Program-made: the position numbers and the translations under genes
Part shown: one piece after another, positions 1,723 through 62,649 of the stretch
Position numbering within the stretch: the first letter of the stretch is position 1
How the letters are laid out: each line of letters begins with the position of its first letter
NCBI RefSeq assembly: GCF_963921235.1
Contig: NC_086097.1
Location: forward strand, 34,412,001 to 34,476,000
From: Mobula hypostoma
Taxonomy: Eukaryota
Direction: 5' to 3'
DNA length: 64,000 bases
The notes under the pieces: generated by a model
What the model was told of the DNA's origin: nothing
The model's database searches: none
Seen by the model: the letters and a program-made list of their open reading frames with translations, nothing else

Positions 1723-2040
1723 CTTTAAACTTTCAGAACATACCCCCCTCTCTGCTTCTGCTCGTGTAACGAGATCTTAAAAATCCAATTGATAATACAA
1801 ATGACACTTATTTTACAGAAAACTGGATTAAAAATTTGTAGGCACGGAGAAGAGGGGGTGAGCTTTGAATTTTTTCATTGCCCCCAGGAACAACCAGATC
1901 ACCCCATTGAAATGAACAAAAAGGGCAAAGCACACATATTCAGAAAGGACACAAAGCTCAAACTTCAAAGTAAATTTATTTATCAAAGTACTTTTTTTTC
2001 TTGCCGACATGCCTGGACCCATCATATAAATAATAATTAC

Positions 2041-2985
2041 AAAGAAAGCACAACAGTACCACTACTTCCTTCGGAGTCTGCGGAGATTCGGCAAGTCATC
2101 AAAAACCTTGGCAAACTTCTAAAGATGTGCGGTGGAAAGTATGCTGACTGGCTGCATTACGGCCTGGTATGAGAACACCAATGCCTTTGTAATTATATTG
2201 TGTTGGCGCGTGGCCAAGTGGTTAAGGCATTTGTCTAGTGATCTGAAGGTCGCTATTTCGAGCCTTGGCTGAGGCAGCGTGTTGTGTCCTTGAGCAAGGC
2301 ACTTAATCACACATTGCTCTGCGACGACACCGCTGCCAAGCTGTATGGGTCCTAATGCCCTTCCCTTGGACAACATCGGTGGCGTGGAGAGGGGAGACTT
2401 GCAGCATGGGCAACTGCCAGTCTTCCATACAACCTTGCCCAGGCCTGCGCCCTGGAAACCTTCCAAGGCGCAAATCCATGGTCTCACAAGACTAACGGAT
2501 GCCTAAGAATACCTTTGTGTGAAAAATCCAACAAAAGACAGTGGGTTTGGCCCAGTATATCATGGGTAAAACCTCCCAACCTTTGAGCACATCTACATGA
2601 AATATTGCCATAGAAAAGCAGTATCAATCATCAAAGATCCTCACCACCCAGGCCAGGCTGTCCTCTCACTGTTGCCATCAGATAGAAGGTACAGGTGCCT
2701 CAGGACTCGCACCAGCAGGTTCAAGAACAGTTATTATCCTTCAACCATCAGGCTCTTGAACAAACTGCACTCATTCAAATGAGAAATACACTCATTTAAG
2801 GACTCTTGTTATTTCATGCTCCTTATTTATTGCTATTTACTTGTATCTGCAATTGCAGAGTCTGTTCTCCATTGATCCTGTTTACAGTTACTGTTCTATA
2901 AGTATGCCCACAGGAAAAAGAATATCAATGTTGTATGGGGTGACATGTATGTACTCTGATAATAAATTTTACTTTGAACTTTAGA
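2041..2985 (+). mobile_element. Rex1/Babar-type LINE 3' end (interrupted by a SINE)
   Basis: Translates to KKAQQ..FLRSLRRFG..FxRCAVES.LTGCITAWY and RKAVSIIKDPHHPG..RTSRFKNSYYPSTIRLLN, typical of the Rex1/Babar C-terminus; 3' UTR ends AATAAA...ACTTTGAACTTT. Confidence 0.8.
2191..2507 (+). mobile_element. tRNA-derived CORE-type SINE, copy 2
   Basis: Highly similar to 540-849; TSD AATGCCTTTGT/AATACCTTTGT at 2180-2190 and 2508-2518 (1 mismatch). Confidence 0.9.
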
Positions 2986-3039
2986 AGTTTGTACAATGGG
3001 ATAAATGAAAAACTATCCACAAAGCACGATATACACTAT

Positions 3040-3625
3040 TCTGTAAAATAAAAAAGTAATAACTAAATAATTCTGAGAACATGAGTTGTAGAGTCCTTGA
3101 AAGTGAGTCCATGTGTTGCAGAATTAGTTCAGAGTTGAGGTGAGTGAAATTATCCACACTGGTTCAGGATCCTGATGGATGTAACTTCCTGAACCTGGTG
3201 GTGTGGGACCCAAGGATCCTGTACCTTCTTGCTGACGACAGTAGTAAGAAGCGAGCGTGGGCTGACGGATGCTTCTTTCTTGTGGCAGCACTCCTTGTAG
3301 ATGTCCTCAATGGTGGGAATGGCTTTTCCTCTGATGGACTGTGGGCTGCAGGGTTTTCTGTTCCTGCTGTTTCCACGGTGCAACCATTCAAGATACTCTG
3401 CACCGTGCACCTTTAGAAGTTTGTCAAAATTTTAAATGACATACCAAATCTGTAAAGACCTCCAAGCAAGTAGAGGCACTGTTGTGCCTTCTTTATAATA
3501 GCACTTATATACTGGTTCCATCAGAGATCTTCTAAAATGATAATGTCAAGGAATTTAAAGTTACTAAGCCACTCCACCTATGATTCCCTAATGAAGACTG
3601 CCTCATGGACCTCCAGTTTCTTCCA
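3040..3625 (-). mobile_element. Rex1/Babar-type LINE fragment
   Basis: Minus-strand SILNGC, IRGKAIPTIEDIYKECCHKK and LLSSARRYRILGSHTTRFR motifs; its tail probably lies at 1958-2040. Confidence 0.7.
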
Positions 3626-3699
3626 CTATCTGTGATAGAACCATAGAAGATCATTAGAATTTTATGACATTTTCTACTGAAAGTGATTTGGAAGAAATC

Positions 3700-4560
3700 T
3701 GCCTGGAAATTGGCATCTTGGGACTAGAGTTATACAACACAGATCAGTGTTGGACCTTTTGCTCTGAGAGATATATATATATATTCACAGCTATATATAG
3801 CTGTGACTAGCAAGAAAAATTGTCTAAGCAGAATTCAGATCACTCTAACAATTGCAGAGTGATGCATTTTGGGAAGTCAGATAAGAATAAGACACGTAGG
3901 GCACTAAGGAACTTTGATGAACAGAGAAACCCAGGGCTTCAAGACCAAAGCTACCTGACACTTGCAAATCAGGTTAATAGGGTGCTGAAGGAGGAATGGG
4001 GCATTCTTGTCTTTAATGTTTAGGGCATAGAATGTAAGAGCTGGGATGTTACAATGTAACTTCCTCAAGACTCTGTTTAGACTGCACTTGGACTATTATA
4101 GGTTATTGATTGATTGATTGAGATATAGTGGAGTTTGTCCTCGCCACACCAAAAGTAGGTTGTGTTGGAGAAAGTGCAGCGAAGATTCTCCAGGAAGTTG
4201 CCCAGATTAGATAAGTTGGGCAAAGGAAGCAGGGATCTGACCCGGTTGAAGAATGTACGATTACGAGGAGGTAGATAGTCAAAATCTTTTTCCCATAACA
4301 GGGGTGAAGAGATCAGGAGGCTGCGGTTTTACTGTGAGTGGTAGAGATTTTGAAGGCGATCTGAATGTCTGATTTTACAGAGAGTAGTTGGTATCTGGAA
4401 CATGCTGGAATGAGGTACATTCACAATGTTTCACAAACATTTAGAGGGGCACTTGAAAAGGCAGAGCATAGAAGGTTGAGGAGCTGATGTGGCCCAATGG
4501 GATTGGTGTAGATGGGAAAATGTCTGTTTCAACATGTTGGCCTAAAGAGCCCATTTCTGG
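3700..4560 (+). mobile_element. Old degraded CR1 LINE 3' portion
   Basis: CRVMHFGKS..EQRNPG and RLHLDY motifs, plus a CR1-like 3' UTR. Confidence 0.7.
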
Positions 4561-4757
4561 GACTTGAAAGTGATCTCCCTCAAACCTTGATCGAAAGAAG
4601 GTGCACAGCGATGCTGGTGTGTTTTCCCACTGGAAAAAAAAAGCACAAAACAGACAGGGAAAGGCCAAACACGGCAGCTAGCATTTCACGACGCAGCTGG
4701 GAAAGAAAGACAGCTGCCCATAGTCCCTGAGGTAGCTAGACATCAATTGCACATGTT

Positions 4758-4910
4758 ATGGCTACCTTGGAGGAGAGAGGGCCTACTGGGGAAATGCACT
4801 GGGCTCCCATATTTTCAGAAAAAGACATTACAATGCTGCTTAATCTGATAAATGCAGAAGGGAGGGTTAATCTACCAGAGGGGTTCAGAAATCCACCAAG
4901 GATGTCTAGA
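4758..4910 (+). mobile_element. Possible PIF/Harbinger Myb/SANT-like ORF remnant
   Basis: APIFSEKDITMLLNLINAEGRVNLPEGFRNPP resembles the N-terminus of Harbinger Myb/SANT proteins (APxFS..l..Ll..v.....l.P....pp); similarity from memory only. Confidence 0.35.
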
Positions 4911-5396
4911 GGTCCAAAAGAGGCACCAATAAAAGAAGCTGGAAGGAAGGGAACCAGTTCTGTCCTCCGAGTGGGAAACCCCACACAGTGGAATAACAAC
5001 ATTTTTGACCTCAAGATAAATCAAGGTATCTTGAAGACTTCTAAAATGATTGCTCTGTCAGACATACACACATGTGCACACATATACACAGAGTTATGTT
5101 CCTCAACACTACACCCTCTCCTGCCCCTGACCCCACCAATGTTCCCTCTAATTCTTTTTACAGCTGCGCAGGCCAACCATTACTCTGAGCAGTAAATTTT
5201 TATACGGCCTGAAAACTGTAAAGCATTTCAAATGTTTTATTTTGTAACGTGCACACTATGACTATTTAGCATGAAATTTGAAAAATCACATGCTTTTGAT
5301 TTTATTTATTAAGGGGCATAATGAAATACAGTACAAAAAATTCTTTCACATTTTGTAAAAGTTTTCTAGGTGCATCTAATTCTAGCTGCAAGGCTA

Positions 5397-7075
5397 CAGT
5401 GTCTATAAAAAGTATTTCACCCCCACCCCACCAGAAGTTTTCATGTTTTATTGTTTTACAACATTGAATTAGTGGATTTAATTTGGCTTTTTTGACATTG
5501 ATCAACAGAAAAATACTCTTTAAAAAAAAAACAGATCTCTACAAAGTGATCTAAATTAATTACAGGTACAAAACAAAATAATTGATTGCATAAGTATTCA
5601 CTCCCCCTCCCCGACTTTAATATGACACACCAAATCATAACTAGTGCAGCCAATTGGTTTTAGAAGTCTCATAATTAGTTAAATGGAGATCTGTTTTTGG
5701 AGACTTGTGTACTGTCAAGGTGTTTCAATTGATTATAGTAAAAATACACCTGTATCTGGAAGCTCCAACTGCTGGTGAGTCAGTAACCTGGCAAAAACTA
5801 CACCATGAGGACAAAGGAACACTCCAAACAACTCTGCAAAAAGGTTATTGAAAATCACAAGTCAGGAGATGGATACAAGAAAATTTCCAAGTCACTGAGT
5901 ATCCCTTGGAGTACAGTTAAGTCCGTCATCAAATGGAAAGAATATTGGCATAGATGTAAATCTGCCTAGGGCAGGCCATCCTCAAAAACTGAGTGACCAT
6001 GCAAGAAGGGGACTAGTGAGGGAGGCCACCAAGAGACCTATGACAACTCTGGAGGAGTTATAAGCTTCAGTGGCTGAGATGGGAGAGACTGCGCATACAA
6101 CAACTGTTACCCAGGTGCTTCACCAATTGCAGCTTTATGGGAGAGTGGCCAAGAGAAAGCCACTGTTGAAAAAAAAACTCACATGAAACCTTGGCTAGAG
6201 TTTGCCAGAAGCCTGTGGGAGACTCTGAAGTCAGTTGGCAGAAGATTCTATCGTCTGATGAAAGCAAAATTGAGCTGTTTGGCCATCAGACTAAATGCTA
6301 TGTTTGGTAGAAGCCAAGCACTGCACATTATCAAAAACACACCATCCCTACTGTGAAGCATGGTGATGGCTGCATCATGCTGTGGGGATGCTTCACTGCA
6401 GCAGGCCCTGGAAGGTTTGTGAAGGTAGAGGGTAAAATGAATGCAGCAAAACACTGGGAAATCCTGGAGGAAAATCTGATGCAGTGTGAAGAGAACTGTG
6501 ACTTGAGAGAAGATTTGTTTTCCAGCAAGACAATGACCCCCAACCATAAAACCAAAGCTACACAGGAATGGCTTAAAAAAAACAAAGTTAACGTCCTGGA
6601 GTGGCCAAGTCAGAGTCTGGACCACAGTTGAACAGAGAATTTGTAGCTGGACTTGAAAAGGGCTGTACACTCACATTTCCCATGCAATCTGACAGAGCTT
6701 GAACAGTTTTGTTTTTTTTTATTTGGCGTGTGCCTGCGTGCGTGCGAGTCTATGCGTGCGCGTCTGTGTGTGTCCGTGTGTGCGTCCATGATGATGGATT
6801 TTTCATGGCTTTTTTCCAAGGCGCGGAACGAAAGGGAGAGACTGTGTGGCGCACCACTCCTCACACAGATATTTTCGCAGTGCTTTCCCTTTGCTTTTAC
6901 GAGGTCGAGTTGCAGTCTCGACACTCAACCCGGCACGGATGGAAAGCGTGCTTGGGGGCGGACACAAGTAGTTTCGAACCCGGGAACCTCCGCTCTCGGG
7001 TCCGGCGCCGATGTCGTTGCGCCACCAGCCGGCCCTTGAACAGTTTTGTAAAGAAAAATGGGGAAAATTTGTTCC
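5397..7075 (+). mobile_element. Tc1-family DNA transposon (IR/DR type), 3'-truncated, defective transposase
   Basis: TA|CAGTGTCTATAAAAAGTATT terminus; ATG 5805; motifs [35 protein letters not shown]; stops and frameshifts; no right TIR; same family as 33019-34520. Confidence 0.9.
6713..7034 (-). mobile_element. Young CpG-rich tRNA-derived SINE inserted in the Tc1 element
   Basis: Minus-strand head GGCCGGCTGGTGGCGCAACG..GGTTCGAAAC, poly-A tail; perfect 15-bp TSD CTTGAACAGTTTTGT at 6698-6712 and 7035-7049. Confidence 0.9.
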
Positions 7076-7234
7076 TGTCTACCGCACACCTCAGTTTGCT
7101 GCATTCGATGGGTTGCCCAGACTCTATTCATAATCAACCGACTTCCTGCACTTTCTGTTCCCACAAGTTTTGCAGCTGATAGAGTCACTGCCTCACAATG
7201 CCTGAGGACCCAGACTCTCTGTCTTGTGGAGTTT

Positions 7235-8046
7235 GCAGCTAGAAAAATGGCAGATGGAATTTAATGCAGACTATTGTGAAGTATTACACTTTGAGAAGAC
7301 AAACCAGGATAGAACTTACATGGAGAGTGGTTGGACACTGAGGAATGTGGTAGAACAGAGGGATCTGGAAATCCAGATCCATAATTCCTTGAAAATGGCA
7401 TCATAGGTAGATAGGACCCAAAGAAAGCTTTTGGCACATTGGCCTTCATAAATAAAAATATTGAGTACAAGAGTTGCAATGTTATGTTGAAGTTCTATAA
7501 GACGTTGGTGAGGCCTAATTTGGAGTGTTGTGTCCAGTTTCGGTCTCCTACCTACAGGAAAGATCGAAAGAGTGCAGAGAAAACATACAAGGATGTTGCA
7601 AGAACTTGAAGACCTGAGTTATAGGGAAGTGTTGAGAAGATTAGGACATTATTTCCCAGAGTAGGAGCAGAGATTTAATAGAGCTATATAAAATTATGAG
7701 GGGTATAGAAAGGGTAGATGTGAGCAGACATTTTCCCACTGAGGTTGGGTGAGACCAGAACTAGAGGTAGTGGGTTAAGGGTGAAAGGTGAAATGACTAA
7801 GGGGAACATGAGAGAGAACTTCTTCACTCAGAAGGCGGTGAGAGTGTGAACGAGCTGCCAGTGGAAGTGGTGGATGCAGGTTCGATTTCAATATTTAGGT
7901 AAAATCTGGATACATACATGGACGGGAGGAGTATGAAGGGCTATGCTCCGGGTGCAGGTTGAAGGTATTGGGTAGATCAATAGCTTGGCATGGAAGAGAT
8001 GGGCCAAAGGACCTGTTTCCGAGCTATAGTATTCTATGACTCTATA
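7235..8046 (+). mobile_element. CR1 LINE 3' end
   Basis: EKWQMEFNADYCEVLHF..VVEQRDL, LVRPNLE; tail TTCTATGACTCTAT. Confidence 0.85.
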
Positions 8047-9095
8047 AATGATTGTTAAATTGGTTTATTATTGATAAGGTCAGTTTTGGATCATATCCTG
8101 TTGAACAAAACAGTTTTTCGTTTTCTGTGCAAACTTCCATTGGAGGGCCCGTGTGAGATAGCACAATACAGCACAGGAACAGGCCTTTGGGCCCACAATA
8201 TTATGCCGAACAAGTTAAATTAGTAATAAAATGGTTAACTAAACCAATTTCTTCTGACTACACAACATCCATAACCTCCCATTTTCCTCACATTCATGTG
8301 CCTATCTAAATGACTCAAAGTTCTCTAATGTATCTGCCCCTACCACCACCTCAGGCATCTCATTCCAGGCACCTGCCACTTTGTGAAGAGAAAAAATGCC
8401 CCTCACATCGTCTTTGAAATTACCTCTCTCACCTTAGGAGACACTATCTGGTATTTCAACCATGAGGAAAAAGATACTGTCTGTCTGCTCTATTATGCCT
8501 CTCATAACTTTAAGCCTCTGTTGGATCGCCTCTCAGCCTCTGCTGCTCGAGAAAACACAACCCAAGTTTGTCCAGCCACTTGTTGTAGCACATGCCTTCT
8601 AATTCAGGCAACATCCTGGTAAAATTCTTCTGCACCCTCCCCAACGCCTCGACATCCTTCCTTTAATGGGCTGACCGGAACTGCATACAATACTACAGAT
8701 GCGACTTAATTGGAGTTTATAAAGCTATAACATAACTTCCTGACTTTTGAACTGAATGCCTCGACTAATAAAGGCAAGCATGCCATATGCCTTCTTTCAT
8801 CACCCCATCAACCTGGGAAGCCACTTTCATCACCCCATCAACCTGTGTAACTACTTTCAAGGAGCCAAGACTTGGACCCCAAGATCCCTCGTCTCATCAA
8901 CACTGTTAGGGTTTTGCTATTAACATTTGACCTCCCAAGGTGCAGCACTTCACATTTAGCCGGGTTAAACTCCATCTGCCTTTTCTCTGCCCTGATCTGT
9001 ATCCTGTTTATTCTTTGCCAGTCTTCTACACAATACACAACACCACCAACTTTCGTATCATCTGCAAACTTGCTAACCCACCGATCTATATTTTC

Positions 9096-14835: not shown

Positions 14836-15301
14836 TAATCGGAACCCAATCTTCATTGGAGCATGACTTCTCAACTCCTGAACTCAATGCCCTCACTGAT
14901 GAAGGCTAGCAAGCTGAGTACCGCCTTCATTTTCTCCTCTACCGGTTTTGCCTCTCTTTCAGGGATCAACGTACTTGTATCCCTAGGCCTCTGTGTTGTA
15001 CAACTCTCCCCCAGGGCCTTACCATTTACTGAACAGAAAGCAAATCCTCACACTTGTCTGATTTCAATTCCAATCGCCGTTCCTGGGCCCACTTTCCCAG
15101 TTCATCTAGATCGTGCTGTCACCTTAAGGTAACCTTCTGCTCCTTTCACTACACACCAACTTTGGTGTCATCCACAGACTTACTTCACATGTTAACAACA
15201 TTGTCATCTATGAATATATTTAAGGTAGACAGATTCCTAATAAACGAAGGGTGAAAGGTAACTGGCTGTATATGGGAGTGTGAAAAATTGGCTACAATCA
15301 A

Positions 15302-15465
15302 GGATAAAGGAGATTCTGCGGACGCTGGAAATCTTGAGCAACACACTCAACAAATCAGGCAGCAGCCATGAGGGGAAATGACCAGTCCATATTTTGAATG
15401 TTGACTGTTTATTCCCCTCCATAGATGCCGCCTGACCTGCAGAGTTCCTCCTGCATTTTGTTGAT
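15302..15465. mobile_element. Penelope-like inverted terminal-repeat unit inserted in a CR1 tail
   Basis: Two opposed PLE tail arms; TSD-like TACAATCAA on both sides. Confidence 0.6.
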
Positions 15466-15829
15466 TACAATCAAATCATCCATGACCTTTTTTGAGGGGT
15501 TGAGTGGGCTATTTCTGGTGCCATTGTGTATGCATGATTTCACTGGGCAAACATACAGGTTCCATAATAGTAACTTCAGTTGCATCACCTGCTCACCTAT
15601 GGGAGCCCAAGAGGTGGGGGTGTCACAAGTTAAATATCTGTGAAGAAAGGTCCTTTATCACTGTCAGGGAAACTACACTGTTTCAGTCAGCTTATGAAAA
15701 GCAAGCTCATTATAAAGTTAGATGTCTAATGCCAGTTTGTTGAAGTGAGGAGAGAATGGCTGACACAAGGAAAATACATCTACCAAATGCTCCCAGAGAG
15801 GTGTTCTGAATAACATCAGAGATGGGAAA

Positions 15830-16185
15830 TAAGACTATAAGACATAGGAGCAGAACTAGGCCATTCATTCCATCAAGTCTGCCTTTTCATCATTCAACCC
15901 ATTCCCCTGCCTTCTCCTTGTAACTTTTGACACCCTTACTAATCAAGAACCTATCAACCTCCACTTTAAATATACCCAATAACTTGCCCTTCACAGCCGT
16001 CTGTGGCAATGAATTCCACAGATTCACCACCCATTGGCTAAAGAAATTCCTTCTCATCTGTGTTCTGAAGGGAAATCCTATTCTGAGGTTGTGCCCTCTG
16101 GACCTAGACTCCCCAGCTATAGGAAACTTACTCTCCACATCCAGTCTATCTATGCAGTGGGGGCAATGAGATCCCCCTTTCATAA
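15830..16185 (-). mobile_element. CR1 LINE 3' end
   Basis: RRNFFSQWVVNLWNSLP..IFKVEVDRFLISKG. Confidence 0.85.
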
Positions 16186-16629
16186 TCCTGATGACTAAGT
16201 AGAGGAATGCATTTCAAACGGTGTCCTTGCCTTGCATGGGAAGGGAACGTCTCCTTGCATGGAGACGTGACAAAGAGTGGCAGCAAGTTCACAACAGGCA
16301 TTAAAACAACGGATGCGACATTGCAATTAGCGCAGGTACTTCAGCAAATCACTCAAAGGGCTGAGGTACCCTTAGGCATCACTTTGCACATCTGGCTAAT
16401 GAAGAGAAGGATCCTGTTAATCCCGTACGCCAGAGACATGAGATGAACATAGTGGGGAATGATGTGTACTGTGATTAAAAAGAAATTAAGAAGTCAAGTT
16501 GTAAACAATTGCAACAGGTTATACCTAGAAGCTGACAATGTCAGGATTAGGTTGGGTGAAGGAGTTCTGTCTGAGAGTGCATGCTTACCATCTAACTACT
16601 ATGCTAGGTCGAGTCAGATGGGACACCTC

Positions 16630-16893
16630 AGCACTGAAATGATTCTACAATCCACGGATTCACTTTCGATGACACTACAAATCATGTTCTCAATATTATT
16701 TATTTACTCATGTTTTTATTCATTTTGCCTTCTTTTGCACATTGGCTGTTTGTCAGTCTTTGTCTAGTTTTTCACTGATTTTATTGCATTTCTTTATTCT
16801 ACTGAGAGTGCCTGCAAATAAATGAATTTCAAGATTGCATATGGTGACATATTGCACTCTGTCAATTAATTTACTTTGATCTTTAAACTTTGA
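16630..16893 (+). mobile_element. Rex1/Babar-type 3' UTR fragment
   Basis: Similar to the UTR at 2800-2985 (GGTGACATAT..CTCTG..TTTACTTTGA). Confidence 0.55.
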
Positions 16894-16978
16894 AAAGAGG
16901 AGACACAAGAGACATCAGGTACTGGAACTTGAAGCAACACACAAGATGCTGAAGGAACTCAACAGGTCAGGCAGCATC

Positions 16979-17578
16979 CCAGTGGCCACACATTTTAATT
17001 CCACATCCCATTCCCATTCTGACATGTCTATCCACGGCCTCCTCCACTGTAAAGATGAAGCCACACTCAGGTTGGAGGAACAACACCTTATATTCCGTCT
17101 GGGTAGCCTCCAACCTGATGGCATGAACATTGACTTCTCTAACTTCCGCTAGGCCCCACCTCCCCCTCGTACCCCAGCTGTTACTCATTTTTATGCACAC
17201 ATTCTTTCTCTCACTCTCCTTTTTCTCCCTCTGTCCCTCTGAATATACCTCTTTCCCATCCTCTGGGTCACCCCCCCCCCCCGTCTTTCTTCCCGGACCT
17301 CCTGTCCCATGATCCTCTCGTATCCCCTTTTGCCTATCACCTGTCCAGCTCTCGGCTCTATCCCTCCCCCTCCTGTCTTCTCCTATCATTTTGCATCTCC
17401 CCCTCCCCCTCCAGCTTTCAAATCCCTTACTCACTCTTCCTTCAGTTAGTCCTGACGAAGGGTCTCGGCCTGAAACGTCGACTGCGCCTCTTCCTATGGA
17501 TGCTGCCTGGCCCGCTGCGTTCACCAGCAACTTTGATGTGTGTTGCTTGAATTTCCAGCATCTGCAGAATTCCTGTTG
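16979..17578 (+). mobile_element. Penelope-like retroelement 3' part: GIY-YIG endonuclease C-terminus and terminal repeat
   Basis: PVATHFNSTSHSHSDMSIHGLLHC..RLEEQHLIFRLGSLQPDGMN (stop at about 17152), polypyrimidine spacer, hammerhead motif. Confidence 0.85.
17448..17483 (+). ncRNA. Minimal type I hammerhead ribozyme motif (PLE-associated)
   Basis: AGTC-CTGACGA-AGGGTCTCGGCCT-GAAAC-GTC-GACT: stem I AGTC/GACT, CUGANGA and GAAA core boxes, stem II, GUC cleavage triplet. Confidence 0.8.
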
Positions 17579-19084
17579 TCTGTGAAGAGAAGTTGACACC
17601 TTGGGTCAAGAACCTTCATCGGACCAAAGGATAATGGGCAAAGAGCCAGTGTAATGAAGATGAAGGGGAAGGGTGGAGTAAGTGTTACCAAGTGATAGGA
17701 AGACCCAAGTGAGGAGGAGGGATAGGCAGGCAGAAGAGGGAGAGTGGAAGCTGGGAGATGATGGACAGAAGTGACCAAAGGTGACATGATGGAATCTGAA
17801 AAGAAGGGAAAGTGGACCATGGAATCAAATAAGGGAGGTTTAGAGGATAGATGGGACCACTGGGGGGAGGGGAGCTAGTGGGAGGGCTATGTTGATGATG
17901 GGCAGATGGAGTTGGTGGGGAAGGAATGTTGGTCACTGGTGTAGGAAGAAATGGGTTGATCGGAAGGAGAGAGAATAGGGAGAATGTTTATAGTAACGCA
18001 GAAACCACTTGGAGACCTAAGATAGAGTTTGATTATGATAGAGGTATAGAAATGGGCATCTGCTTTGCACACTCTGGCAAAAGAGCTAAAATAAAGGAAA
18101 ATTTGCAATTCAATAAGACATATCAGAAGTCAAGGCAGCACAGAGATAAAGTTGCAGATGATCTGAAACATCAAAGAAACTAAAGACTAAATAAGTGCTT
18201 GGTTTTCAGATGATCCAAGTGCTCATATGAGTGAGAGTCTGTTAAAGGTCTCAAGTGTTTTTGTGATTAAGTTAAAGAGGCCGTCTTCTCCTTGTTAAAG
18301 GCTCCAAAATCATACCTGCGCTTGCATGAACTTTTGAAGATTGTGCATTCATAAGTATTACTCCCACATAGTCCTGAATGTAAGTAGATTGGATCCTGCA
18401 AGGAGTGTCAATATCACACATTTCTGTCTTTTATTATTTCCAGGGCATCACAGCTTTGTCACAGCCGGACAGCAAAAGTTTACAGGGATGTGGGTCAAAC
18501 ATATAGAAATGGCACTAGCTTAGTTAGGCAACTTGGTTGGCATGGATGAGATGGGCCAAAGGGCCTTTTCCCAAGAGTATAGCACTATGTTTCTATGGCT
18601 TTGTGAGCTCACAATGCCACCTAGTTTTATAGCCTTAGCAACTTCGATTACGTTACACATTGTTCTTTTCACCTAAGTTGTTAATGCGGTATATATTGGA
18701 AATAGCAGAGGCCCAGTACTGATTCTGTGACATCTCACTAATACCAGCCCAGCATCCTAGATATAACACATCTATTTCTGCTTTTTGCTCTATGGCTTCA
18801 ATCAATCCGCAGTTGATTTTTAAAAAAAATATCCTCAACCCCGTAAGCAATCATTTTATGTCACAATTTTCTGCTATCTGCATTGGCTACAGACATACGG
18901 TGATTACTACCCTAGAAACAGTGAATCGTTGAAATACTACAATGCTGAATGTGACCATTCGGCCCACTTAGCCATACTGGCTCTCTGTGGAACAATTCAG
19001 TCAGTCCCAATCCCTCGCTCTTTCCCCAAAGAATTGTAAAATAATTTTCCCTCGAGTGCCTTCCAGATTCCCTTTTAAAACAGT

Positions 19085-19430
19085 AGCATAGTGGTTGACA
19101 GTGTCAGTGACCAGAAGATCAGGTTCAATTCCTGCAGCTGCCTCTAGGAATTTGCATGTTCTCCTCATGACCGTGTGCGTTTCCCCTGGGTGCTCTGGTT
19201 TCCTCCCATATTCCAAAAAGACATATGGGTTAGGGTTAGTAAGTTGTGGACTTGCTACAGTATGTTGGCACTGGAAACATGGTGACACCTGCAGGCTGCC
19301 CCCCCCCGCCCCACCAGTACATCTTCAGGCTGTATTGGTTGTCAGCGCAAAATGACCCATTTCACTGCATGTTTCAAAGTTTCAATAAACATGTGGCAAA
19401 TAAAACTGAAGTTTACTGTATCTTTAATTA
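19085..19430 (+). mobile_element. V-domain SINE
   Basis: TAGCATAGTGG A-box, GGTTCAATTCC B-box, V-domain TTTGCATGTTCTCC..GGGTGCTCTGGTTTCCTCCCA. Confidence 0.8.
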
Positions 19431-19704
19431 GTTCTGATTCTTCCACCTTTTCTGGCTGAGTTCCAGATGATAACTATTTTCAGCTTTAAAAGAAAACATT
19501 TTCTTCCTCTCTCCCCTTTATCTTTTACCCACATTTTGAATTTGCATCCCAAGTACTGAAATCACTTGCTGCTGGGATCAGCATTTTCATTTCACCTAAA
19601 CCCATCAGTATCTGTGTCAGCATTCAGAGCCAAGCAGAATGCCCATTTCCTATTCAGTAAGCAGTGCCTCCTCTTCATCTCTTTCCGCTTTGTCATTTTT
19701 CCTG

Positions 19705-20514
19705 TGTAACGCCCTGGCTTAGATTGCTACTGCTATGCTGTAGGTATTTTATTTCGGCCATTTTCTGCAAAAGCAGTGTCCTGCTGGTTTGGTTTCGGCT
19801 GGAGATAAAACAGCATGTTGTTCAACTTAGGAATGTTGTGTCAGCCAATCAGGATGGTGGGATTGGGAGAAAGTTCTAGAGAGAGTGGGGTGGAGTGAGT
19901 TTTGAGATGGGCAGTAGACCAGTTTGGGATCTTTTGGGGGGAGCTGTGGTAAAGGACGGAAGGGAAGATGCTGCAGAACGCCGTTGGAAGGAGAGTCCCT
20001 ATTGCACAAAGAGCTTTGTACAGGCGAATGGCTCCGTGGAGAAAGGACCAATATTCCAGTTTGTTCGAGATGGACTTTGGGGGAAGTTCGGAATGTGGCG
20101 TGTGCTTTCACGCAGACCGTGGGTCCAGCACATGAGTAAAAGACAACTCCAGTATGAGCTCCAACAGTCATGGTGCACATTGGACTGGTTTAACTGTAAT
20201 GGGCCCTTTTTCTTTCTCTTTTCTCTTTTGTCTGATAAAGCTGAACTTTGTAAATGTACTTTCTTCATGTGGTGTAATATCTGTTATTTCTTACCAACTG
20301 ACAATTCTGCATGGGCGGTATTTACACAGCAGTCACTCGAATCAAGGTTTCTTTAATCAGGACATCACAGTTCCCATTTGGTTGAACCTCATATCATACT
20401 GACCCTAGACATATATTGTTTATGAAAGGTAGCCTTCTCACCGCTGAGTCACATGGCTGTTAGCAGAGCTCACTAACGAGCCGCGTTTGTATACGAGCCC
20501 GGTGAGAGGTTTCA
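19705..20514 (+). mobile_element. Solo LTR (810 bp)
   Basis: TGTAAC...GTTTCA termini flanked by 4-bp TSD CCTG (19701-19704, 20515-20518); strand tentative. Confidence 0.85.
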
Positions 20515-21174
20515 CCTGTTATACCTGTCCTGTCCTTCAGCACCCATGTACTCTTGTGGCCTGACTACCCAGATTTCTGCTTCATGAACTCTGTACATCA
20601 GTAGCTTTTCCTCATGGCTACGAACCTGCCTATAACAAAATACATCAATTCTTGTCTTTTCTCTTTTCTTAATTCAACTAGCTGTGAGGATGTGGTTCTC
20701 AGGGACAAATATCAACTATCCCTGCTGTTTTGTCCTGTTACTCTGCTGATATGTGGCAAATCCACAGCTTCCTCTATCTACAACATATGTATATTTAATT
20801 ATCTTCATTAACACAGCCAGCCAAAGCGGAAGATCTTGCAATAGGTAACAGCAGGCCATGAAATCTCTACTTACTGCAACCGTATTTCTTAGACCTCACA
20901 GGATTGATTATATTTCACTGTGGTTTATCAAGAGCGACAAATCACAGAGTTCTCAGTTTATAAAATGAACAAAACCCATCAAAACTGACACACGGCTGGC
21001 ACAGTTTTGAACCTACTAAGAGTACGAGTATGGAAAAGATTTATGGATTTTCTCATTGAAAGAGCAGGATTAATTGACTATCCTTTTTTTTTGTAGATTA
21101 GTAATGGCAAACAAAGACTTTTTGCTGTCAGCTCAGATTTGAGATCGTGCACAGACCAATGGAGAATGCAGCAA

Positions 21175-21475
21175 GATGGTATAGCAGTTAGTGCAATCAC
21201 CTTACAACAGCAGTGATCATCGACTGGGGTTCGATTCTCACCACCGTCTGTAAGGAGTTTGTACACTTTCCTGTGACCATGTGGGTTTCCTCCGGGTGCT
21301 CCGGTTTCCTCCCACATTCCAAAGGTGTACGGGTTCCAGTTAGTAAGTTGTGGGCATGCTATGTTGGCACAGGAAGCACGGCGACACAATCTTCACTCAT
21401 TTGATTTGACGCAAAATGACCCATTTCACTATACGTTTCAATGTACATGTGACAGATGAAGCTAATCTTTAACTC
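21175..21475 (+). mobile_element. V-domain SINE
   Basis: GGTTCGATTC B-box; GTGGGTTTCCTCCGGGTGCTCCGGTTTCCTCCCACATTCCAAAG. Confidence 0.85.
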
Positions 21476-21800
21476 AGTCTTTTAAGAGGGGACCTTTCTT
21501 TTTTCTGTTTCCATTGTACAAAATTTCTACTGGGAGATCATGTAAATTTGTAGTAATTATTCCTGTTTTTAAATGTAGATGGCACACATTGGAAGATATA
21601 ATGGGTTCAACCATTAGCAAATTTGCCAGCTTTGTCTTCAAAAGTAAATAGCCACATAATGAGCAGAAATATAACTAGATTTCATTTTTGGTAAACATCC
21701 TCATTTTTGGGTTGATCTTAGTATCAGAATTTTCACTAAAGAAGGTCTTTTGTTTAAAATGTTATAAGGAGTAAAATGTTAGCTTGACATATAGAGTGTA

Positions 21801-22448
21801 CAGTACTGTGCAAGAGTCTTATGCACATGTACATAGCTGGGGTGTCTAAGACTTTGCACAGTAGCTTATTTGTCAATGTGGAGTGAGGAGCTAGTTTGTA
21901 AATCCGGCGGGAGCAAAGGATGTTGGGAATGGCAAGGGTGGAGTGCCACAGAGAGGAGTGGGGCTGGTGGCAGAGGAAGATTGCCGGGACAGGGGTGGTG
22001 CGGGTGCAGACACACCCAACCCTGAGGCACCAAGCAAGATGATTTGATTCCAAACAATTGGCTTATTGATCATTCATTCTCTGGGGCACTGCTGTGTTTT
22101 CGTGGAAGTTTGTGAAGAAAAAGAATTTCAGGATGTATATTGTATACATTTCTCTGACATTAAGTGTACCTATTGAAACCTTTTGAATTATGGAATGTCT
22201 CTAGGGTGCTTTCCGCTCTCTCGTCTCTCCCTTCCCCTTTTCTCAACATGATTCCCCTCTCCCTATCTTCTTCCCACCTTCAATCCACAATAGAGACCCA
22301 TATCAGAATCAGGTTTATCATCACTAACGTTTGTCACAAATGTTTTTTTGTAGCAGCAGTACAGTGTAATACATAAGATTACTAGAGTACAATGCAAAAA
22401 GTCTTAGGCACCCAGGCTGTATATATGTACCTCAGACTTTTGCACAAG
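21801..22448. mobile_element. Composite Tc1/mariner-type MITE bounded by two ~65-bp palindromic units
   Basis: TA|CAGTACTGTGCAAGAGTCTT..AAGACTTTGCACAGTA (21801-21863) and a similar unit at 22386-22448. Confidence 0.6.
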
Positions 22449-22477
22449 GAAATAAATCTAACCTTAGAGTTGATCTG

Positions 22478-22713
22478 CAATACACAAAATGATGGAGGAA
22501 CTCAGCAGGTCAGGCAGCATCTATAGAGGGGAATAAACAGTCAATATTTGAAGCCGGGATCTTGCATTAGGATGTCCTGATCAGAGTCCTGATGAAGGGT
22601 CTCAGCCTGAAATGTCAACAGTTTATTCCTCTCCATAGATGCTGCCCGACCTGCTGAACTCCTTTAGTATTTTGTGTGTGTTGCTCTGGACTTCCAACAC
22701 CTGCAGAATCTCT
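22478..22713. mobile_element. Penelope-like inverted terminal-repeat pair with a hammerhead motif
   Basis: 22478-22575 is the reverse complement of 22585-22680; AGTC CTGATGA AGGGTCTCAGCCT GAAAT GTC at 22585-22616. Confidence 0.75.
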
Positions 22714-23064
22714 TATGCTTAAAGTTAACCTGCTGAGTGGAATGAGGTTGAATGCTGGTTTCATAGCCCACTCAATCATACTCACCCGTGGCTTCATAGC
22801 TGTGGTGAGCACAACAGAATGTGAACCTGATTTGTGGATAGGAGGGGTGTTGGTGCTGACAAATTTTTCAATAGGGTAGCAGAATTAATTTCAGCTATTT
22901 GATTTAACTTCTGCTAATTAGTTTTTAATTAAAGATGGAATGACTAAGAATCTAAATGAAGAAAATAATTAGTCAGAAATTTTAGACAAAAGGATTTGTT
23001 CTTCTAAAGCTGTGGATCTTTTGGAAAAAAAAAGATTAATGCAATGATATGGACTTCATTAAAG

Positions 23065-23555
23065 TCCATTTGGACTCTACATCTGAGAAAGGATGTGCTA
23101 ACATTGGAGAGAGGCCAGTGGAGGTTTACAAGAATGATCCTGGGAAGCAAAGGGTTAATGTATTATGTGTGTTTGATGGTTCTAGGCCGGTACTCACTGG
23201 AGTTTAAACAAATGAGGTAGGGTGGTGAGGTGTTTCCAATAGTGGAAGAGCCTAGGACCAAAGGGAACAGCTTCAATATAAAAGGACATCCCTTTAGAAT
23301 GGAGATTAGGAGGAATTTCTTCAGCCAGAGGGCAGTCATTTTGTGGAATTCATCACTACAGGCAGTTGTGGAGGCCAGGTCATTGGGTATATTTAAAGCA
23401 GAGGTTGATAGGTTCTTGATTAGTAAGAGTGTCAAAGGTTACAGGGAGAAGGCAGAAGAATGGTGTTGAGAGGGAAAGTAAATCAGTCATGAGCAAATGG
23501 TGGAGCCTACTTGATAGGCCATATGTCCTAAATCAGATTCTACGCCTTGCGGTCT
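23065..23555 (+). mobile_element. CR1 LINE 3' end
   Basis: RRNFFSQRAVILWNSSLQAVVEARSLGIFKAEVDRFL. Confidence 0.85.
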
Positions 23556-23924
23556 GAAGTATCTCCTTGAATATAAATTACGGAAAAGAACTGGATGGAA
23601 GAAACTCATTTGAAGTAATGTTGATTAGAAGCAAGTAAAGGAAGAGCAGGAGTTGAAGAATATTTCTTAGTTTAGGTTGACTGAAGAGTCAATAACCAGA
23701 GGCTTTACCTTGACTGGGAAAAGAACCAGAAACAACATAAAGAAATGTTTTTATACAACTTGTATTTAGGATCTGAGACACACTGAATGACATGTAGCAG
23801 AACGGAGATCCAACAGTAACTTAAAGGGAAATCAGAATAGAATCTCAAAAGAGGAAACATGTTTGAAGATGGGGATTCAGAGGGACCAATTCCGAGGGAC
23901 TGGATATTTACAGACTTGGATAGA

Positions 23925-25145
23925 CAGGGGCTGATTAGTGATTGTCAACATGGCTTGGTGCATGGTAGGTCATGTCTAACCAATCATAGAGTTTTTTGAG
24001 AAAGTTACCAGGAAAGTAAACAAAGGCAAGGAAGTGGATGTTGTCTACAAGGACTTTAGCAAGGCCTTTGACAAGGTCCTGCATGGGAGGTTGGTCAAGA
24101 AGGTTCATTCTTCTGGCATTCAGGGTGAGGTAGTAAATTGGATTAGAAGTTGCCTTCATGGGGAGTGGATGTAGAGTCTAGGCCTGTGACTAGTGGAGTG
24201 CCACAGGGATCAGTACTGGGTCCAATGATGTTTGTTCTCTATATCAGTGATCTGCATGATGATGTAGTAAACTGGATCAGAAAATTTCAGATGGCTCCAA
24301 GATTAGGAGTGCAGTGCACAGTGAAGAAGGCTTGCAGTGGAATTGGGGCCAGCTGGAAAAATGGCAGATGGAATGAAATGAAGACAAATGTGAGGTGTTG
24401 CACTATGGAGGACAAACCCGTGTAGGTCTTACACGGTGAACGGTAGGGCATTGAGGAGTGCAGTAGAACTGAGGGATCTGGGAATATAGATTCATAATTT
24501 GTTGAAAGTGGTGTCACAGGTAGGCAGTGTCATAAAGAAAGCTTTTGGCACATTGGCTTTCATAAATCAATGTATTGAGTACAGGAGTTGAGATGTTGAA
24601 GTTGTACAAGTCATTGGTCGGGCCTAATTTGGAGTATTGTGTGCAGTTTAAGTCATCTACCCATAGGAAGAGTAGACAGAAAATCTACAAGGATGTTGCC
24701 AGGTCTTGAGACCTGAGTTATAAGGAAAGGCTGAATAGGTTAGGACTTTATTTCTTAGAGTGTAGGAGAATGAGGGGAGATTAGATAGAGGTATACAAAA
24801 TCATGAGGGGTATAGATAGGGTAAGTGCAAGCAGGCTTTTTCCACTGAGGTTGGGTGAGACCAGAACTGGAGGTCATGGGTTAAGGGTGAAAGGCACAAT
24901 GTTTAAGGGGAACTTCTTCACTCAGAGGGTGGGTGAGAGCGTGGAATGGGATGCCTGAAAAAGTGGTGGATGCAGGTTTGATTTCAACATCCAAGAGAAA
25001 TTTGGATAGGTACTTGGATGGGAGGAAAGTGGAGGGGTATGGTCTGAGTACGAGGTTGACAGGACTAGGCAGGTTGATATTTCAGTGTGGAGTAGATGGA
25101 TGAAATGTCCTGATTCTGTGCTGTAGAGTTCTATGAATTCTATGA
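23925..25145 (+). mobile_element. CR1 LINE RT to 3' end
   Basis: VTSGVPQGSVLGPMMFVLYISDL; CR1 tail TTCTATGA repeats. Confidence 0.85.
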
Positions 25146-29357: not shown

Positions 29358-29548
29358 CGAGGAGTGATTGATAGGTTCGTGGCCTAAGGTAGAAGGAGAT
29401 GAGTTATACAGCTCTCATTACATGCACATGCAGGTCAACTGTTTGAGTGATTATGCAGAAAGTTTGAAGTTAATATCTTCTTCTACCTTAGGCCACGAAC
29501 TTATCAACCACCCCTGATGAGTTATTAACTTCAAACTTTCTGCATAAT
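29356..29548. mobile_element. Mariner-derived MITE (partial)
   Basis: TACGAGGAGTGATTGATAGGTTCGTGGCCTAAGGTAGAAG with an inverted copy at about 29480-29516; same family as 59415-59757. Confidence 0.85.
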
Positions 29549-31814
29549 ACTAGATCTAGTATTAGGTAACGAGCCGGGTCAGGTCACAGATCTTTCAGTG
29601 GGTGAGCATCTGGGAGACAGTGACCACAACTCCCTGGCCTTTAGCATTATCATGGAAAAGGATAGAATCAGAGAGGACAGGAAAATTTTTAATTGGGGAA
29701 GGGCAAATTATGAGGCTATAAGGCTAGAACTTGCGGGTGTGAATTGGGATGAAGTTTTTGCAGGGAAATGTACAATAGACATGTGGTCAATGTCTAGAGA
29801 TCTCTTGCGGGATGTTAGGGATAAATTTGTCCCGGTGAGGAAGATAAAGAATGGTAAGGTGAAGGAACCATGGGCGACAAGTGAGATGGAAAATCTAGTC
29901 AGGTGGAAGAAGGCAGCATACATGAGGTTTAGAAAGCAAGGATCAGATGGGTCTATTGAGGAATATAGGGTAGCAAGAAAGGAGCTTAAGAAGGGGCTGA
30001 GAAGAGCAAGAAGGGGGCATGAGAAGGCCTTGGCAAGTGGGGTAAAGGAAAACCCCAAGGCATTCTTCAATTATGTGAAGAAAAAAAGGATGACAGGAGT
30101 GAAGGTAGAACCGATTAGAGATAAAGGTGGGAAGATGTGCCTGGAGGCTGTGGAACTGAGCGAGGTCCTCAATGAATACTTCTCTTCGGTATTCACCAAT
30201 GAGAGGGAACTTGAGGACAATAAGAGTGAGGTTGATGTTCTGGAGCATGTTGATGTTAAGGGAGAGGAGGTGTTGGAGTTGTTAAAATACATCAGGACGG
30301 TTAAGTCCCCGGGGCCTAATGGAATATTCCCCAGGCTGCTCCATGAGGCAAGGGAAGAGATTGCTGAGTCTTTGGCTAGGATCTTTATGTCCTCATTGTC
30401 CACAGGAATGGTACCGGAGGACTGGAGGGAGGCGAATGTTGTCCCCTTGTTCAAAAAAAGTAGTAAGGATAGTCCAGGTAATTATAGACCAGTGAGCCTT
30501 ACGTCTGTGTTGCAAAAGCTGTTGGAAAAGATTCTTAGAGATAGGATCTACGGGCATTTAGAGAATCATGGTCTGATCAGGGATAGTCAGTATGGCTTTG
30601 AGAAGGGCAGATCGTGTCTAACAAGCCTGATAGAGTTCTTTGAGGAGGTAACCAGGCATATAGATGAGGGTAGTGCAGTGGATGTGATGTACATGGATTT
30701 TAGTAAGGCATTTGACAAGGTTCCACACAGTACGCTTATTTAGAAAGTCAGAAAGCATGGGATCCAGGGAAGTTTGGCCAGGTGATTTCAGAATTGGCTT
30801 GCCTGCAGAAAGCAGAGGGTCATGGCGGAGGGAGTACATTCAGATTGGAGGATTGTGACCAGTGGTGTCCCACAGGATCTGTTCTGGGACCTCTACTTTT
30901 GTGATTTTTATTAACGACCTGGATGTGGCAGTAGAAGGCTGGGTTGGCAAGTTTCCAGACAACACAAAGGTTGGTGGTGTTGTGGATAGTGTAGAGGATT
31001 GTCGAAGATTGCAGAGAGACATTGATAGGATGCAGAGGTGGGCTGAGAAGTGGCAGATGGAGTTCAACCCGGAGAAGTGTGAGGTGGTACACTTTGGAAG
31101 GACAAGCTCCAAGGCAGAGTACAAAGTAAATGGCAGGATACTTGGTAATGTGGAGGAGCAGAGGGATCTGCCTCACAGGTAGATAGGGTAGTTAAGAAAG
31201 CTTATGGGGTGTTGGCTTTCATAAGTCAAGGGATAGAGTTTAAGAGTTGCGATGTAATGATGCAGCTCTATAAAACTCTAGTTAGGCCACACTTGGAGTA
31301 CTGTGTCCAATTCTGGTCGCCTCACTATAGGAAGGAATGGGAAGCATTGGAAAGGGTACAGAGGAGATTTACCAGGATGCTGCCTGGTTTAGAGAGTATG
31401 CATTATGATCAGAGATTAAGGGAGCTAGGGCTTTACTGTTTGGAGAGGAGGATGATGAGAGGAGACATAATAGAGGTGTACAAGATAATAAGAGGAATAG
31501 ATAGAGTGGATAGCCAGCGCCTCTTCCCCAGGGCACCACTGCTCAATACAAGAGGACATGGCTTTAAGGTAAGGGGTGGGAAGTTCAAGGGGGATATTAG
31601 AGAAAGGTTTTTTACTCAGAGAGTGGTTGGTGCGTGGAATGCACTGCCTGAGTCAGTGGTGGAGGCAGATACACTAGTGAAATTTAAGAGACTGCTAGAC
31701 AGGTATATGGAGGAATTTAAGGTGGGGGGGGGTTTACATGGGAGGCAGGGTTTGAGGGTCGGCACAACATTGTTGGCCGAAGGGCCTGTACTGTGCTGTA
31801 CTGTTCTATGTTCT
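29549..31814 (+). mobile_element. 5'-truncated CR1 LINE, 2.27 kb, ORF2 pseudogene (EN C-terminus, RT, 3' UTR)
   Basis: 381-aa frame with GDSDHNS, PEDWREANVVPLFKK, NYRPVSLTS, MDFSKAFDKVPH; stop at 30743; frameshifts; catalytic FADDTK mutated to FPDNTK; TTCTATG tail. Confidence 0.95.
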
Positions 31815-32004
31815 ACGTTTACCATAACCAGTACAGTATTGCAATTACCATAACACCAGTACCGCGTAGCAGTTACCACAACACCAGTACTGTACAGCGT
31901 AACGTTTACCATAACACCAGTACAACGTAGCTGTTACCATACCAGTACAACGTAACAGTCACCGTGACACAGTACAACGTAGCGGTTACCATAATACCAG
32001 TACA
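31815..32004 (+). repeat. 28-bp minisatellite, right part (~7 units)
   Basis: Same unit as 29198-29357. Confidence 0.95.
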
Positions 32005-33018: not shown

Positions 33019-34520
33019 CAGTGCCTATAAAAAGTATTCACCCCTTCGGAAGTTTTCATGTTTTATTGTTTTACAACAGTGAATCACAGTGGATTAAATT
33101 TGGCTTTTTTTTTGACACTGATCAACAGAAAAGACCCTCTTGTGTCACAATGAAAACAAATTTCTACAAATTAATAAACACAAAATAATTGATTGCATAA
33201 TTACTCACCCCCTTCTAGTCAGTATTTCGTAGATGCACCTTTGACAGTAATTACAGCCTTGAGTCTGTGTGGATAGGGCTCATCTAGTCAGTGCAATTTT
33301 CCCTATTCTTCTTTACAAAACTGCTCAAGCTCTGTCAAATTGCATGGGGATCCTGAGTGAACAGCCCCTTTCAAGTCCAGCCACAGATTCTCAATAGGAT
33401 TGAAGTCTGGGCACTGACTTGGCAACTCCAGGACATTAACTTTGTTGTTTTTAAGCCATTCATGTGTAGTTTTGGTTTTATGCTTGGGGTAATTGTCTTG
33501 CTGGAAAATAAACCTTCTCCTGTCAGAGTTCTGTTGCAGACAGTATCAGGTTTTCTTCCAGGATTTACCTGTATTTTGCTGCATTCATTTTACCCTCTAC
33601 CTTCACAAGCCTTCCAGGGCCTGCTGTAGTGAAGCATCCCCACAGCATGATGCAGCCACCACCATGCTTCACAGTAGGGATGGTGTGTTTCTGATAACGT
33701 GCAAGCTCAATTTAGATTTCATCAGACCATAGAACCTTCTTCCAGCTGACTTCAGAGTCTCCCACAGGCTTCTGGAAAACTCTAGCCAAGGTTTCACATG
33801 AGAATTTTTCATCAGTGGCTTTCTCTTTGCCACTCTCCCATAAAGCTGTGAAGCACCTGGGCAACAGTTGTTGTATGCGCAGTCGCTCCCATCTGAACCA
33901 CTGAAGCTTGTAACTCCTCTAGAGTTGTCATAAGTCTCTTGGTTGCCTCCCTCACTAGTCCCCTTCTTGCATGGTCAGTCAGTTTTTGAGGATGAGGACA
34001 GTCTGCTCTAGGAAAATTTACAGCTGTGCTATATTCTTTCCATTTCTTGATGATTGACTTAACTATACTCCAAGGGATACTCAATGACTTGGAACTTTTC
34101 TTGTATCCATCTCCTGACTTGTGCTTTTCAATAACCATTTTGCATTGTTGCTTGGAGTGTTCTTTTGCCTTCATGGTGTAGTTTTTGCTAGGATACTGAC
34201 TCACCAGCAGTGGGACCTTTTAGACACAGGTGATCTCCATTTAACTAATTATGTGACTTCTAAAACCAGTTGACTGCACCAGTGATGATTTGGTGGGTCA
34301 TATTAAAGGGGGTGAATACTTATGCAATCAATTATTTTGTGATTTATATCTGTAATTAATTCAGATCACTTTGTAGAGATCAGTTTTCACTTTGACACAA
34401 AAGAGTCTTTTTCTGTTGATCAGTGTCAAGAAAAGCCAAATTAAAGCCACAGTGATTCAATGGTGTAAAACAATAAAACATAAAAACTTCCAAGGAGGGT
34501 TAATATTTTTATAGGTGCTG
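33019..34520 (-). mobile_element. Full-length-structure Tc1 transposon (IR/DR type), transposase pseudogene 34174-33219
   Basis: TA TSDs at 33017-18 and 34521-22; ~200-bp inverted repeats; MKAKEHSKQ..HKSGDGYKK N-terminus, GASTKY* C-terminus; internal deletions and frameshifts. Confidence 0.92.
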
Positions 34521-43915: not shown

Positions 43916-44281
43916 TTCTGGTATATCCAGTACTGCCTCCTCTACATAGGTGAGACCTGATTTATTGGGGCACTGTTTTGTTGAGCACCCTGGCTCCATC
44001 CATTACAACAGGTGGGATTTCCCAGTGGCCACCTATTTTAATTCTACTTCCCATTCCCATACCGACATGTGGGTCCTGTGGCCTCCTCTACTGCCACGAT
44101 GAGGCCAAATTCAGGTTAGAGGAGGAACACCTCACATTCTGTCTAGGTAGTATTCAACTTCACAGCATGAACATTGGTTTCTCTGACTTCCCATAATTAT
44201 TCGCCGCTTCTTTGTTTTTTTTTTCATTCTGGCTCTGCTATTACCCCTTCTCCTCTCCTCACCTGACCATCATCTCTTTCT

Positions 44282-44446
44282 CTTACGGTCTCTTACTATC
44301 TCTTCTTTCAGTTAGTCCTGACGAAGGGTCTCAGCCTGAAACGTCGACTATATTTCTTCCTATAGATGCTGCTTGGCCTGCTGCGTTCACCAGCATTTTT
44401 TGTGTGTTGCTTGAATTTCCAGCATCTGCAGATTTCCTCGTGTTTG
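44282..44446 (+). mobile_element. 165-bp hammerhead-bearing PLE terminal unit inserted into the older PLE
   Basis: 14-bp TSD CATCATCTCTTTCT at 44268-44281 and 44447-44460. Confidence 0.85.
44313..44350 (+). ncRNA. Minimal type I hammerhead ribozyme motif
   Basis: TAGTC-CTGACGA-AGGGTCTCAGCCT-GAAAC-GTC-GACTA with a 5-bp stem I. Confidence 0.8.
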
Positions 44447-62315: not shown

Positions 62316-62649
62316 CAGTGGTCCCCAACCTCCGGGCCGCGGACTGACACTGGGCTGCGAAGAATGCAGCGGTACACCGGTGGCCGGAATGCACCGCGCA
62401 TATCTTTAAGAAAAAAGCTGAAATAAACAAGCTAATTAATTAGGTGCCACCCGGCATGTAAATGTCAGCCCAGATCAGAGGTGACGCAATCAGCAATCGC
62501 CTCTGATCTGGGCTGACATTTACGTGCTGAGCGGCACCTATAATCAATTAGCTTGTTTATTTCGGCTTTTTTCTTAAAGATGTGCTGGGTGCGTTCCGGC
62601 TACTGCTGCACCGCTGCATTCTTCGCGGACCGGAGGTTGAGGACCACTA
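62316..62649. mobile_element. hAT/Charlie-type palindromic MITE
   Basis: CAGTGGTCCCCAACCTCCGG / CCGGAGGTTGAGGACCACTA termini; almost wholly self-complementary; imperfect 8-bp TSD ACCTGTAC/ACATATAC. Confidence 0.85.

Follow-up and report, generated by a model that had tools for sequence, protein, structure and literature searches.

Does a hammerhead motif that has kept every letter of its core still act as a ribozyme, or is it only a passenger of the transposon that brought it? This question is raised by a 36-nt stretch on the forward strand of a ray genome, within the 64-kb region that was analysed here at its full length (hereafter "the window"). A preliminary description had taken the stretch for a hammerhead in the terminal repeat of a Penelope-like element (PLE) and had proposed, from its intactness, that it may still cut itself, even inside a host pre-mRNA. 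In this report, we conclude that the motif is very probably the standard minimal hammerhead (min-HHR) of a PLE pseudo-LTR (pLTR), passively inherited, and that this solo copy is most likely silent. Published systems are cited as the available parts of the respective papers describe them.

Results and Discussion

Anatomy of the motif

The letters and the strand of the motif are exactly as first described: it is a minimal type I hammerhead in which every core letter is kept (Table 1). C17 falls at 17479, and cleavage is predicted directly 3' of this residue. The reading of stem III as a loopless ACGU helix, typical of hammerheads that act as dimers, is borne out by the palindrome at 17475-17478, which, under the dimer model, can pair only with a second copy. 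The favoured register leaves A17459 unpaired; the other one has a folding probability (P) of 0.02.

Table 1. Coordinates of the hammerhead, of the element that carries it and of the older repeat around it (window positions).
Feature	Position	Strand	Basis and remarks
min-HHR motif	17448..17483	+	sequence; strict descriptor match; predicted cut 17479/17480
Stem I, 4 bp	17448-51 with 17480-83	+	sequence
CUGANGA core box, N7 = C	17452..17458	+	sequence
Extra A, unpaired	17459	+	favoured fold register
Stem II: 4 bp, first pair G10.1-U11.1, four-base loop	17460..17471	+	minimum-free-energy (MFE) register
GAAA box	17472-75	+	sequence
Stem III: palindromic ACGU, loopless, 15.1-16.1	17475..17478	+	sequence; dimer model in the available part of PMC4209133
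Young 5'-truncated PLE copy, ~600 bp	16977..17580	+	depth step, loose ends at 16977 and 17574; junctions
Last 57 codons and stop of RT-GIY-YIG ORF	16979..17152	+	95% identity to P0001
Pyrimidine-rich stretch, ORF stop to hammerhead	17153..17447	+	sequence; within high-depth family
Terminal-repeat tail, 96 nt 3' of motif	17484..17579	+	common to other window copies
3' half (tail) of older PLE terminal repeat, insertion target	16916..16978	-	tail comparison
5' half of same older repeat, decayed hammerhead, broken core	17581..17626	-	profile, sequence

A strict descriptor has two matches in the window (at 17448 and 44314) and none in any of 200 dinucleotide shuffles (0 in 200/200), and a looser core pattern has four matches against 0.67 expected. 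Because both counts exceed what shuffling or expectation provides, a chance origin of the motif is unlikely. Of the motif searches that had been suggested, the descriptor search thus recovers the hammerhead; the Rfam covariance models do not: across the 64 kb nothing reaches the gathering score, and between 17300 and 17700 no hammerhead family matches at E<=10. Such a miss would be unsurprising for a motif that lacks a helix III loop.

The motif had also been credited with the retention of its CpGs. Four are present, while 17471-72 reads TG at a place where C makes up 20-22% of the family depth in two DNA runs, X1 from the ray's own species and X5 from a relative (organism B). With T at 17471, stem II opens with a G10.1-U11.1 wobble instead of the canonical G10.1-C11.1. 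The same G-U pair is found in most of the family depth, and stem II still pairs; C for T at this position is the sole variant inside the motif among the variants listed. The T, the majority letter in the reads, was probably fixed in a master element. Further, positions 11.1-12 (17471-17472) have the look of an ancestral CpG, being TG in four copies, with G12 kept, and CA in three window copies, with the catalytic G12 lost.

The element and its coding remnant

The motif belongs to the 3' terminal repeat of a PLE with an endonuclease, as had been proposed: it lies 96 nt before the 3' end of the family and 295 bp past the stop codon of an ORF remnant (17150-52), in good agreement with the earlier estimate of about 300 bp downstream of a GIY-YIG C-terminal ORF. 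Family contigs run on upstream of 16977, and the family ends just behind 17574. The identical dinucleotide at the two junctions (16977-78 and 17579-80) represents either a 2-bp duplication or microhomology. As for an arrangement with two direct pLTRs or a partial tandem, the focal copy is 5'-truncated and the 64-kb window holds no full PLE.

All that the copy retains of the endonuclease is the last 57 amino acids; the YIG motif itself is absent from it, and Pfam gives no GIY-YIG match on the remnant alone. The remnant aligns with residues 852-900 of P0016 (E 2e-13), a homologue of 904 aa in which a single ORF combines a reverse transcriptase (RT; RVT_1, 8.6e-08) with a C-terminal GIY-YIG domain (4.7e-06), both above the Pfam cut-off. 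Nine longer homologues of the remnant (of 14 candidates) were found, all from rays and the best at 95% identity; a GIY-YIG match lies below the cut-off in four of the six ray homologues scanned. A second search yielded 43 homologous proteins of at least 801 aa, P0016 among them. The CX2-5CxxC linker pattern occurs in 43 of 52 homologous proteins, including five of the nine ray matches, and the available part of PMC8557442 assigns this linker to the Neptune and Nematis clades, not to Penelope/Poseidon. The ray homologues thus appear to carry a linker of the Neptune/Nematis type, and we leave these two clades undivided.

Some further searches with these sequences were negative. Solved structures gave 0 matches to P0003 in a sequence search, and tail-pattern scans of metagenome contigs and of viral contigs returned 0 loci each. 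When the terminal repeat was searched by blastp for an encoded ORF N-terminus, with full-length homologues of about 40-50% identity as targets, no match was better than E 0.2. Separately, four public stingray gene models that are named as ordinary host genes (P0003, P0004, P0008 and P0009) include the PLE endonuclease end, suggesting exonisation or mis-annotation.

Abundance and age of the copy

The PLE family is hugely abundant in the ray genome. With pieces placed at 88% likeness, 180,181 contig pieces match it in X1 and 77,550 in X5. Over the motif bin the depth adds up to 7.6 million, against about 9 on the unique flank, a figure that is not a copy number. At 17353, 17394, 17414 and 17486, the non-focal letter accounts for 57-72% of the depth in X1 and 97-99.8% in X5, and this shift indicates that the focal subfamily is largely restricted to its own species.

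The copy has at least five private differences over ~600 bp (about 0.8%), each set against 85% or more of the family, a number that may be an undercount because 40 of 84 variant rows were listed; none of the listed private differences falls in the motif. Judged by its letters, the copy is about 1% from the bulk letters of the family and reads as a young, recent insertion. At ~0.8% divergence, the neutral chance that 36 nt stay unchanged is about 0.74, and youth is thus enough to explain the intact core. Nor is the small number of core variants evidence of selection, since placement at 88% likeness favours similar copies.

The relative offers a second view of the age of the insertion. Organism B differs from the ray's own species at 12 positions in 472 bp, a divergence of about 2.5%. 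On the right flank, the fit of X5 contig 32 starts no earlier than 17579 and leaves 18 letters in front of it unmatched; contig 8 of X1 fits from 17559 with 0 differences. The edge of contig 32 at 17579 suggests an empty orthologous site in organism B; under a 31-letter rule, no piece bridges the junction.

Folding and the prospects for cleavage

The energies given here come from nearest-neighbour folding, which ignores the tertiary energy of hammerheads, was run with no active-ribozyme control and is hence weak evidence. In the monomer, the core mispairs with the cleavage-site strand (P 0.97); N7 = C permits pairing between 17454-57 and 17476-79 in this fold. The active dimer is computed at -9.5 kcal/mol; the MFE of the dimer is -28.3, and two separate monomers come to 2 x -10.0. 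With the C allele at 17471, the active dimer would reach -14.7 kcal/mol, so that G10.1-U11.1 costs about 5 kcal/mol per dimer. With native flanks, P(stem I) does not exceed 0.002 in any of four folding windows.

Partners are distant as well. The nearest fully intact copy on the same strand is 26.9 kb away. A partial copy at 22585, 5.1 kb downstream on the same strand, has intact core boxes and a broken 3' side of stem I; from this copy the focal motif could in principle obtain an enzyme half, and the corresponding half-dimer is computed at -7.0 kcal/mol against an MFE of -21.2. Since the copy is solo, its intact partner is remote, its stem II begins with G10.1-U and its core is sequestered in the predicted folds, self-cleavage appears unlikely. 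The hint of activity that had been drawn from intactness thus carries little weight: youth suffices to account for it, no intact partner is near and the core is mispaired in the folds.

Published work on related motifs is informative here. In Schistosoma, cleavage was absent from a min-HHR on its own and low in dimers, and the G10.1-C11.1 pair is called "highly conserved" in PLE min-HHRs (both from the available part of PMC4209133), although it does not form part of the published descriptor. The hammerhead of the lizard element PAc cleaved only with its protein and was dispensable for insertion in vitro, as reported in the available part of PMC11167929. The part of PMC8557442 at hand calls the in vivo role of PLE hammerheads unclear.

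These facts bear on the most viable alternative, that the focal copy is a live ribozyme in vivo which, once crossed by read-through or intronic transcription, would cleave by pairing in trans with one of the numerous near-identical family RNAs or by folding with the assistance of the RT-endonuclease of an active element. Core letters, stems and palindrome are all intact. The subfamily is young and the family plentiful in DNA and RNA-labelled runs, so trans partners may abound; cleavage with the help of a protein has its precedent in the lizard, and the 96-nt tail, which by analogy would be the start of reverse transcription by the element protein, is kept. Against this, each intermolecular helix would have just 4 bp, the active dimer lies far above its competing folds, and the G-U pair adds its cost per dimer. 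Further, no transcript from the locus has been shown, no host exon was found (see below), and lizard RNA-seq had no read ends at the PAc hammerhead site, according to the available part of PMC11167929. We consider a live ribozyme at this locus unlikely.

One feature of the folds may concern the family as a whole. Between 17430 and 17481, the pyrimidine-rich sequence upstream is able to pair both with the core and with the 5' side of stem II, and a further hairpin spans the cut site; of two folding windows around 44314, one gives a similar fold. This fold could, if the models are right, be a family-level lock that is released by a protein. Folding of the 44314 context depends on the folding window (P of stem I 0.89 versus 0.06), and the fold with 0.89 is a core-mispaired hairpin.

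Other copies in the window

A profile gave 16 matches in the window, from which six tail-only and two weak ones (E 0.51 and 0.73) were left out. Among the eight remaining copies, which span the motif, the core boxes are intact in four and the whole motif in two. Many of the losses in older copies are CpG-type transitions. The motif at 44314 has an identical core and belongs to an unrelated insertion.

Several arrangements of these copies deserve mention. An older sense PLE remnant occupies 43930-44890, with a GIY-YIG region at 43965-44190 and a decayed hammerhead at 44780; a piece of ~160 bp with the intact hammerhead at 44314 is apparently nested in it, and the two same-strand motifs are 466 bp apart. 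At 22468-22710, older terminal repeats form a head-to-head fold-back with a damaged hammerhead in each arm and a junction just upstream of both motifs. PLE tails form another fold-back, of lesser length, at 15336-15461; here the junction lies within the hammerhead, close to its GAAA box. Remnants of other transposons lie at 29529-31850, 33815-34219, 57773-58207 and 62152-62439: RT ORFs, an HTH of the Tc1/Sleeping Beauty type and a fragment of RT RNase H. Sequence that recurs within the window amounts to about 23 kb of the 64 kb.

Insertion into an older terminal repeat

The focal copy is flanked by the two halves of another terminal repeat. The segment 16916-16978 is 72% identical to the focal tail and 82-89% identical to three older copies, and it becomes continuous with 17581-17622 once the insertion is removed. 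With a profile built from older terminal-repeat copies, removal of 16979-17580 in silico gives one match of 66.7 bits, against 42.9 and 10.2 for the halves alone. Because the joined flanks match better than the halves, the copy landed antisense inside an older terminal repeat that belongs to a related PLE family. We also considered 17627-18050 (minus strand) as the 3' region of this older element, and rejected it: its similarity was not above shuffles in four of four comparisons.

The inverted tail could instead be the inverted, 5'-truncated arm of the same insertion, that is, a PLE fold-back. PLE insertions typically come with inverted 5' copies (PMC8557442, available part), and the window itself has fold-backs (22468-22710). 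Yet the identity between the inverted and the focal tail is only 72%, the inverted tail runs gaplessly into the decayed hammerhead across the insertion, and both flanks are present in organism B (X5 records 25 and 32). A fold-back origin is therefore highly improbable, and we retain the nested insertion.

Host context

Of the 1014 ORFs of at least 35 aa in the window, 232 were scanned, and no host exon was found among them; the set comprised 124 with splice-like signals, 95 longer ones outside repeats and 13 long ones. Matches above the cut-off were to RT, RNase H, Tc1-type HTH and ALKBH8_N, all of which we take to be transposon-derived; four other weak ones lay below it. The suggested host pre-mRNA context thus finds no support in the scan, with which a position of the locus inside a long intron is still compatible. 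As for transcripts, a search of sequencing runs listed none of RNA as matching, and run X17, whose "RNA" label is a program's guess, has 14,362 family pieces; the unique flank 17637-17730 is uncovered in the RNA-labelled runs X17 and X19, which carries no evidential weight, and assembled contigs cannot reveal RNA ends.

Domestication of the focal copy, to serve its host as a regulatory ribozyme in the manner of the conserved intronic hammerheads of amniotes, has a next to negligible probability: the intact core alone speaks for it, and against it stand a young, species-restricted subfamily that is probably absent from the orthologous site in the ~2.5% diverged relative, a stem III that is not competent in the monomer and the identical core in the unrelated insertion at 44314.

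Proposed history and significance

We propose the following course of events for this passively inherited hammerhead. In the parent element, two tandem terminal repeats would pair through their palindromic stems III and exchange the strands of stem I; the resulting double hammerhead would trim the tandem precursor RNA after GUC, probably aided by the element's own protein. The focal copy would have arisen by target-primed reverse transcription that started in the tail and stopped early, leaving a 5'-truncated insertion; as a recent copy, it would owe its intact core to youth, not to local selection. Even if transcribed, such a solo copy would most likely not cleave at a meaningful rate.

A broader conjecture is that, given the great abundance and youth of the PLE family in rays, solo intact hammerheads find partners in trans, or help from the element's protein, and thereby cut nascent host RNAs that read through them. 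We regard this as quite improbable. If true, there would be a genome-wide, transposon-driven layer of RNA cleavage, and a strand bias against sense intronic copies would be expected.

Comparison with known systems

Min-HHRs occur in the pLTRs of metazoan PLEs, including the fish elements Xena, Poseidon and Neptune (Cervera and De la Pena 2014, PMC4209133), and the link between PLEs and hammerheads is restated in PMC6155905 (both in the parts available). As far as PMC4209133 describes these motifs there, the ray hammerhead shares with them the type I core with CUGANGA and GAAA boxes, U16.1 and H17, a helix I of 4-5 bp (4 here), a loopless helix III with palindromic 15.2-16.2, the extra base between 9 and 10.1 and the position in the terminal repeat. 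Also shared are the prevalence of solo truncated copies and opposite-strand pairs about 100 bp apart. It differs in having G10.1-U11.1 where G-C is typical, and its helix II has 4 bp whereas that of the Schistosoma motifs has 7-8 bp. The abundance of the ray family looks far above the 2,000-9,000 motifs given in the same source, a comparison that is drawn from depth, not from copy counts. None of the terms shark, skate, Callorhinchus and Leucoraja occurs in the part of the PMC4209133 supplement that was covered (file 2), and the literature searched, whose coverage excludes most subscription papers, has no paper devoted to ray PLE hammerheads.

Two other systems are close. PAc, the Poseidon element of Anolis carolinensis (PMC11167929, available part), likewise has 5'-truncated copies and a pLTR hammerhead about 100 nt before the 3' end; it differs from the ray homologues, which have the CX2-5CxxC linker. 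Animal non-LTR retrozymes, which the available part of bioRxiv 10.64898/2026.07.22.740005 describes as present in the one chondrichthyan sampled, share a type I hammerhead derived from PLE pLTRs. They are tandem arrays, whereas the focal copy retains ORF sequence. A tandem retrozyme was considered for the focal locus and rejected, there being no tandem repeat in 15000-24000 and the nearest same-strand copy lying 5.1 kb away.

By its letters, then, the focal motif appears to have every sequence feature of a PLE min-HHR except the typical G-C at 10.1-11.1. The class has been known since 2014, and the motif is an ordinary member of it. As one of very many relics of a known class of elements, a single copy matters little; the young, very high-copy family to which it belongs, in a vertebrate genome, makes a good setting in which to test the in vivo role of PLE hammerheads.
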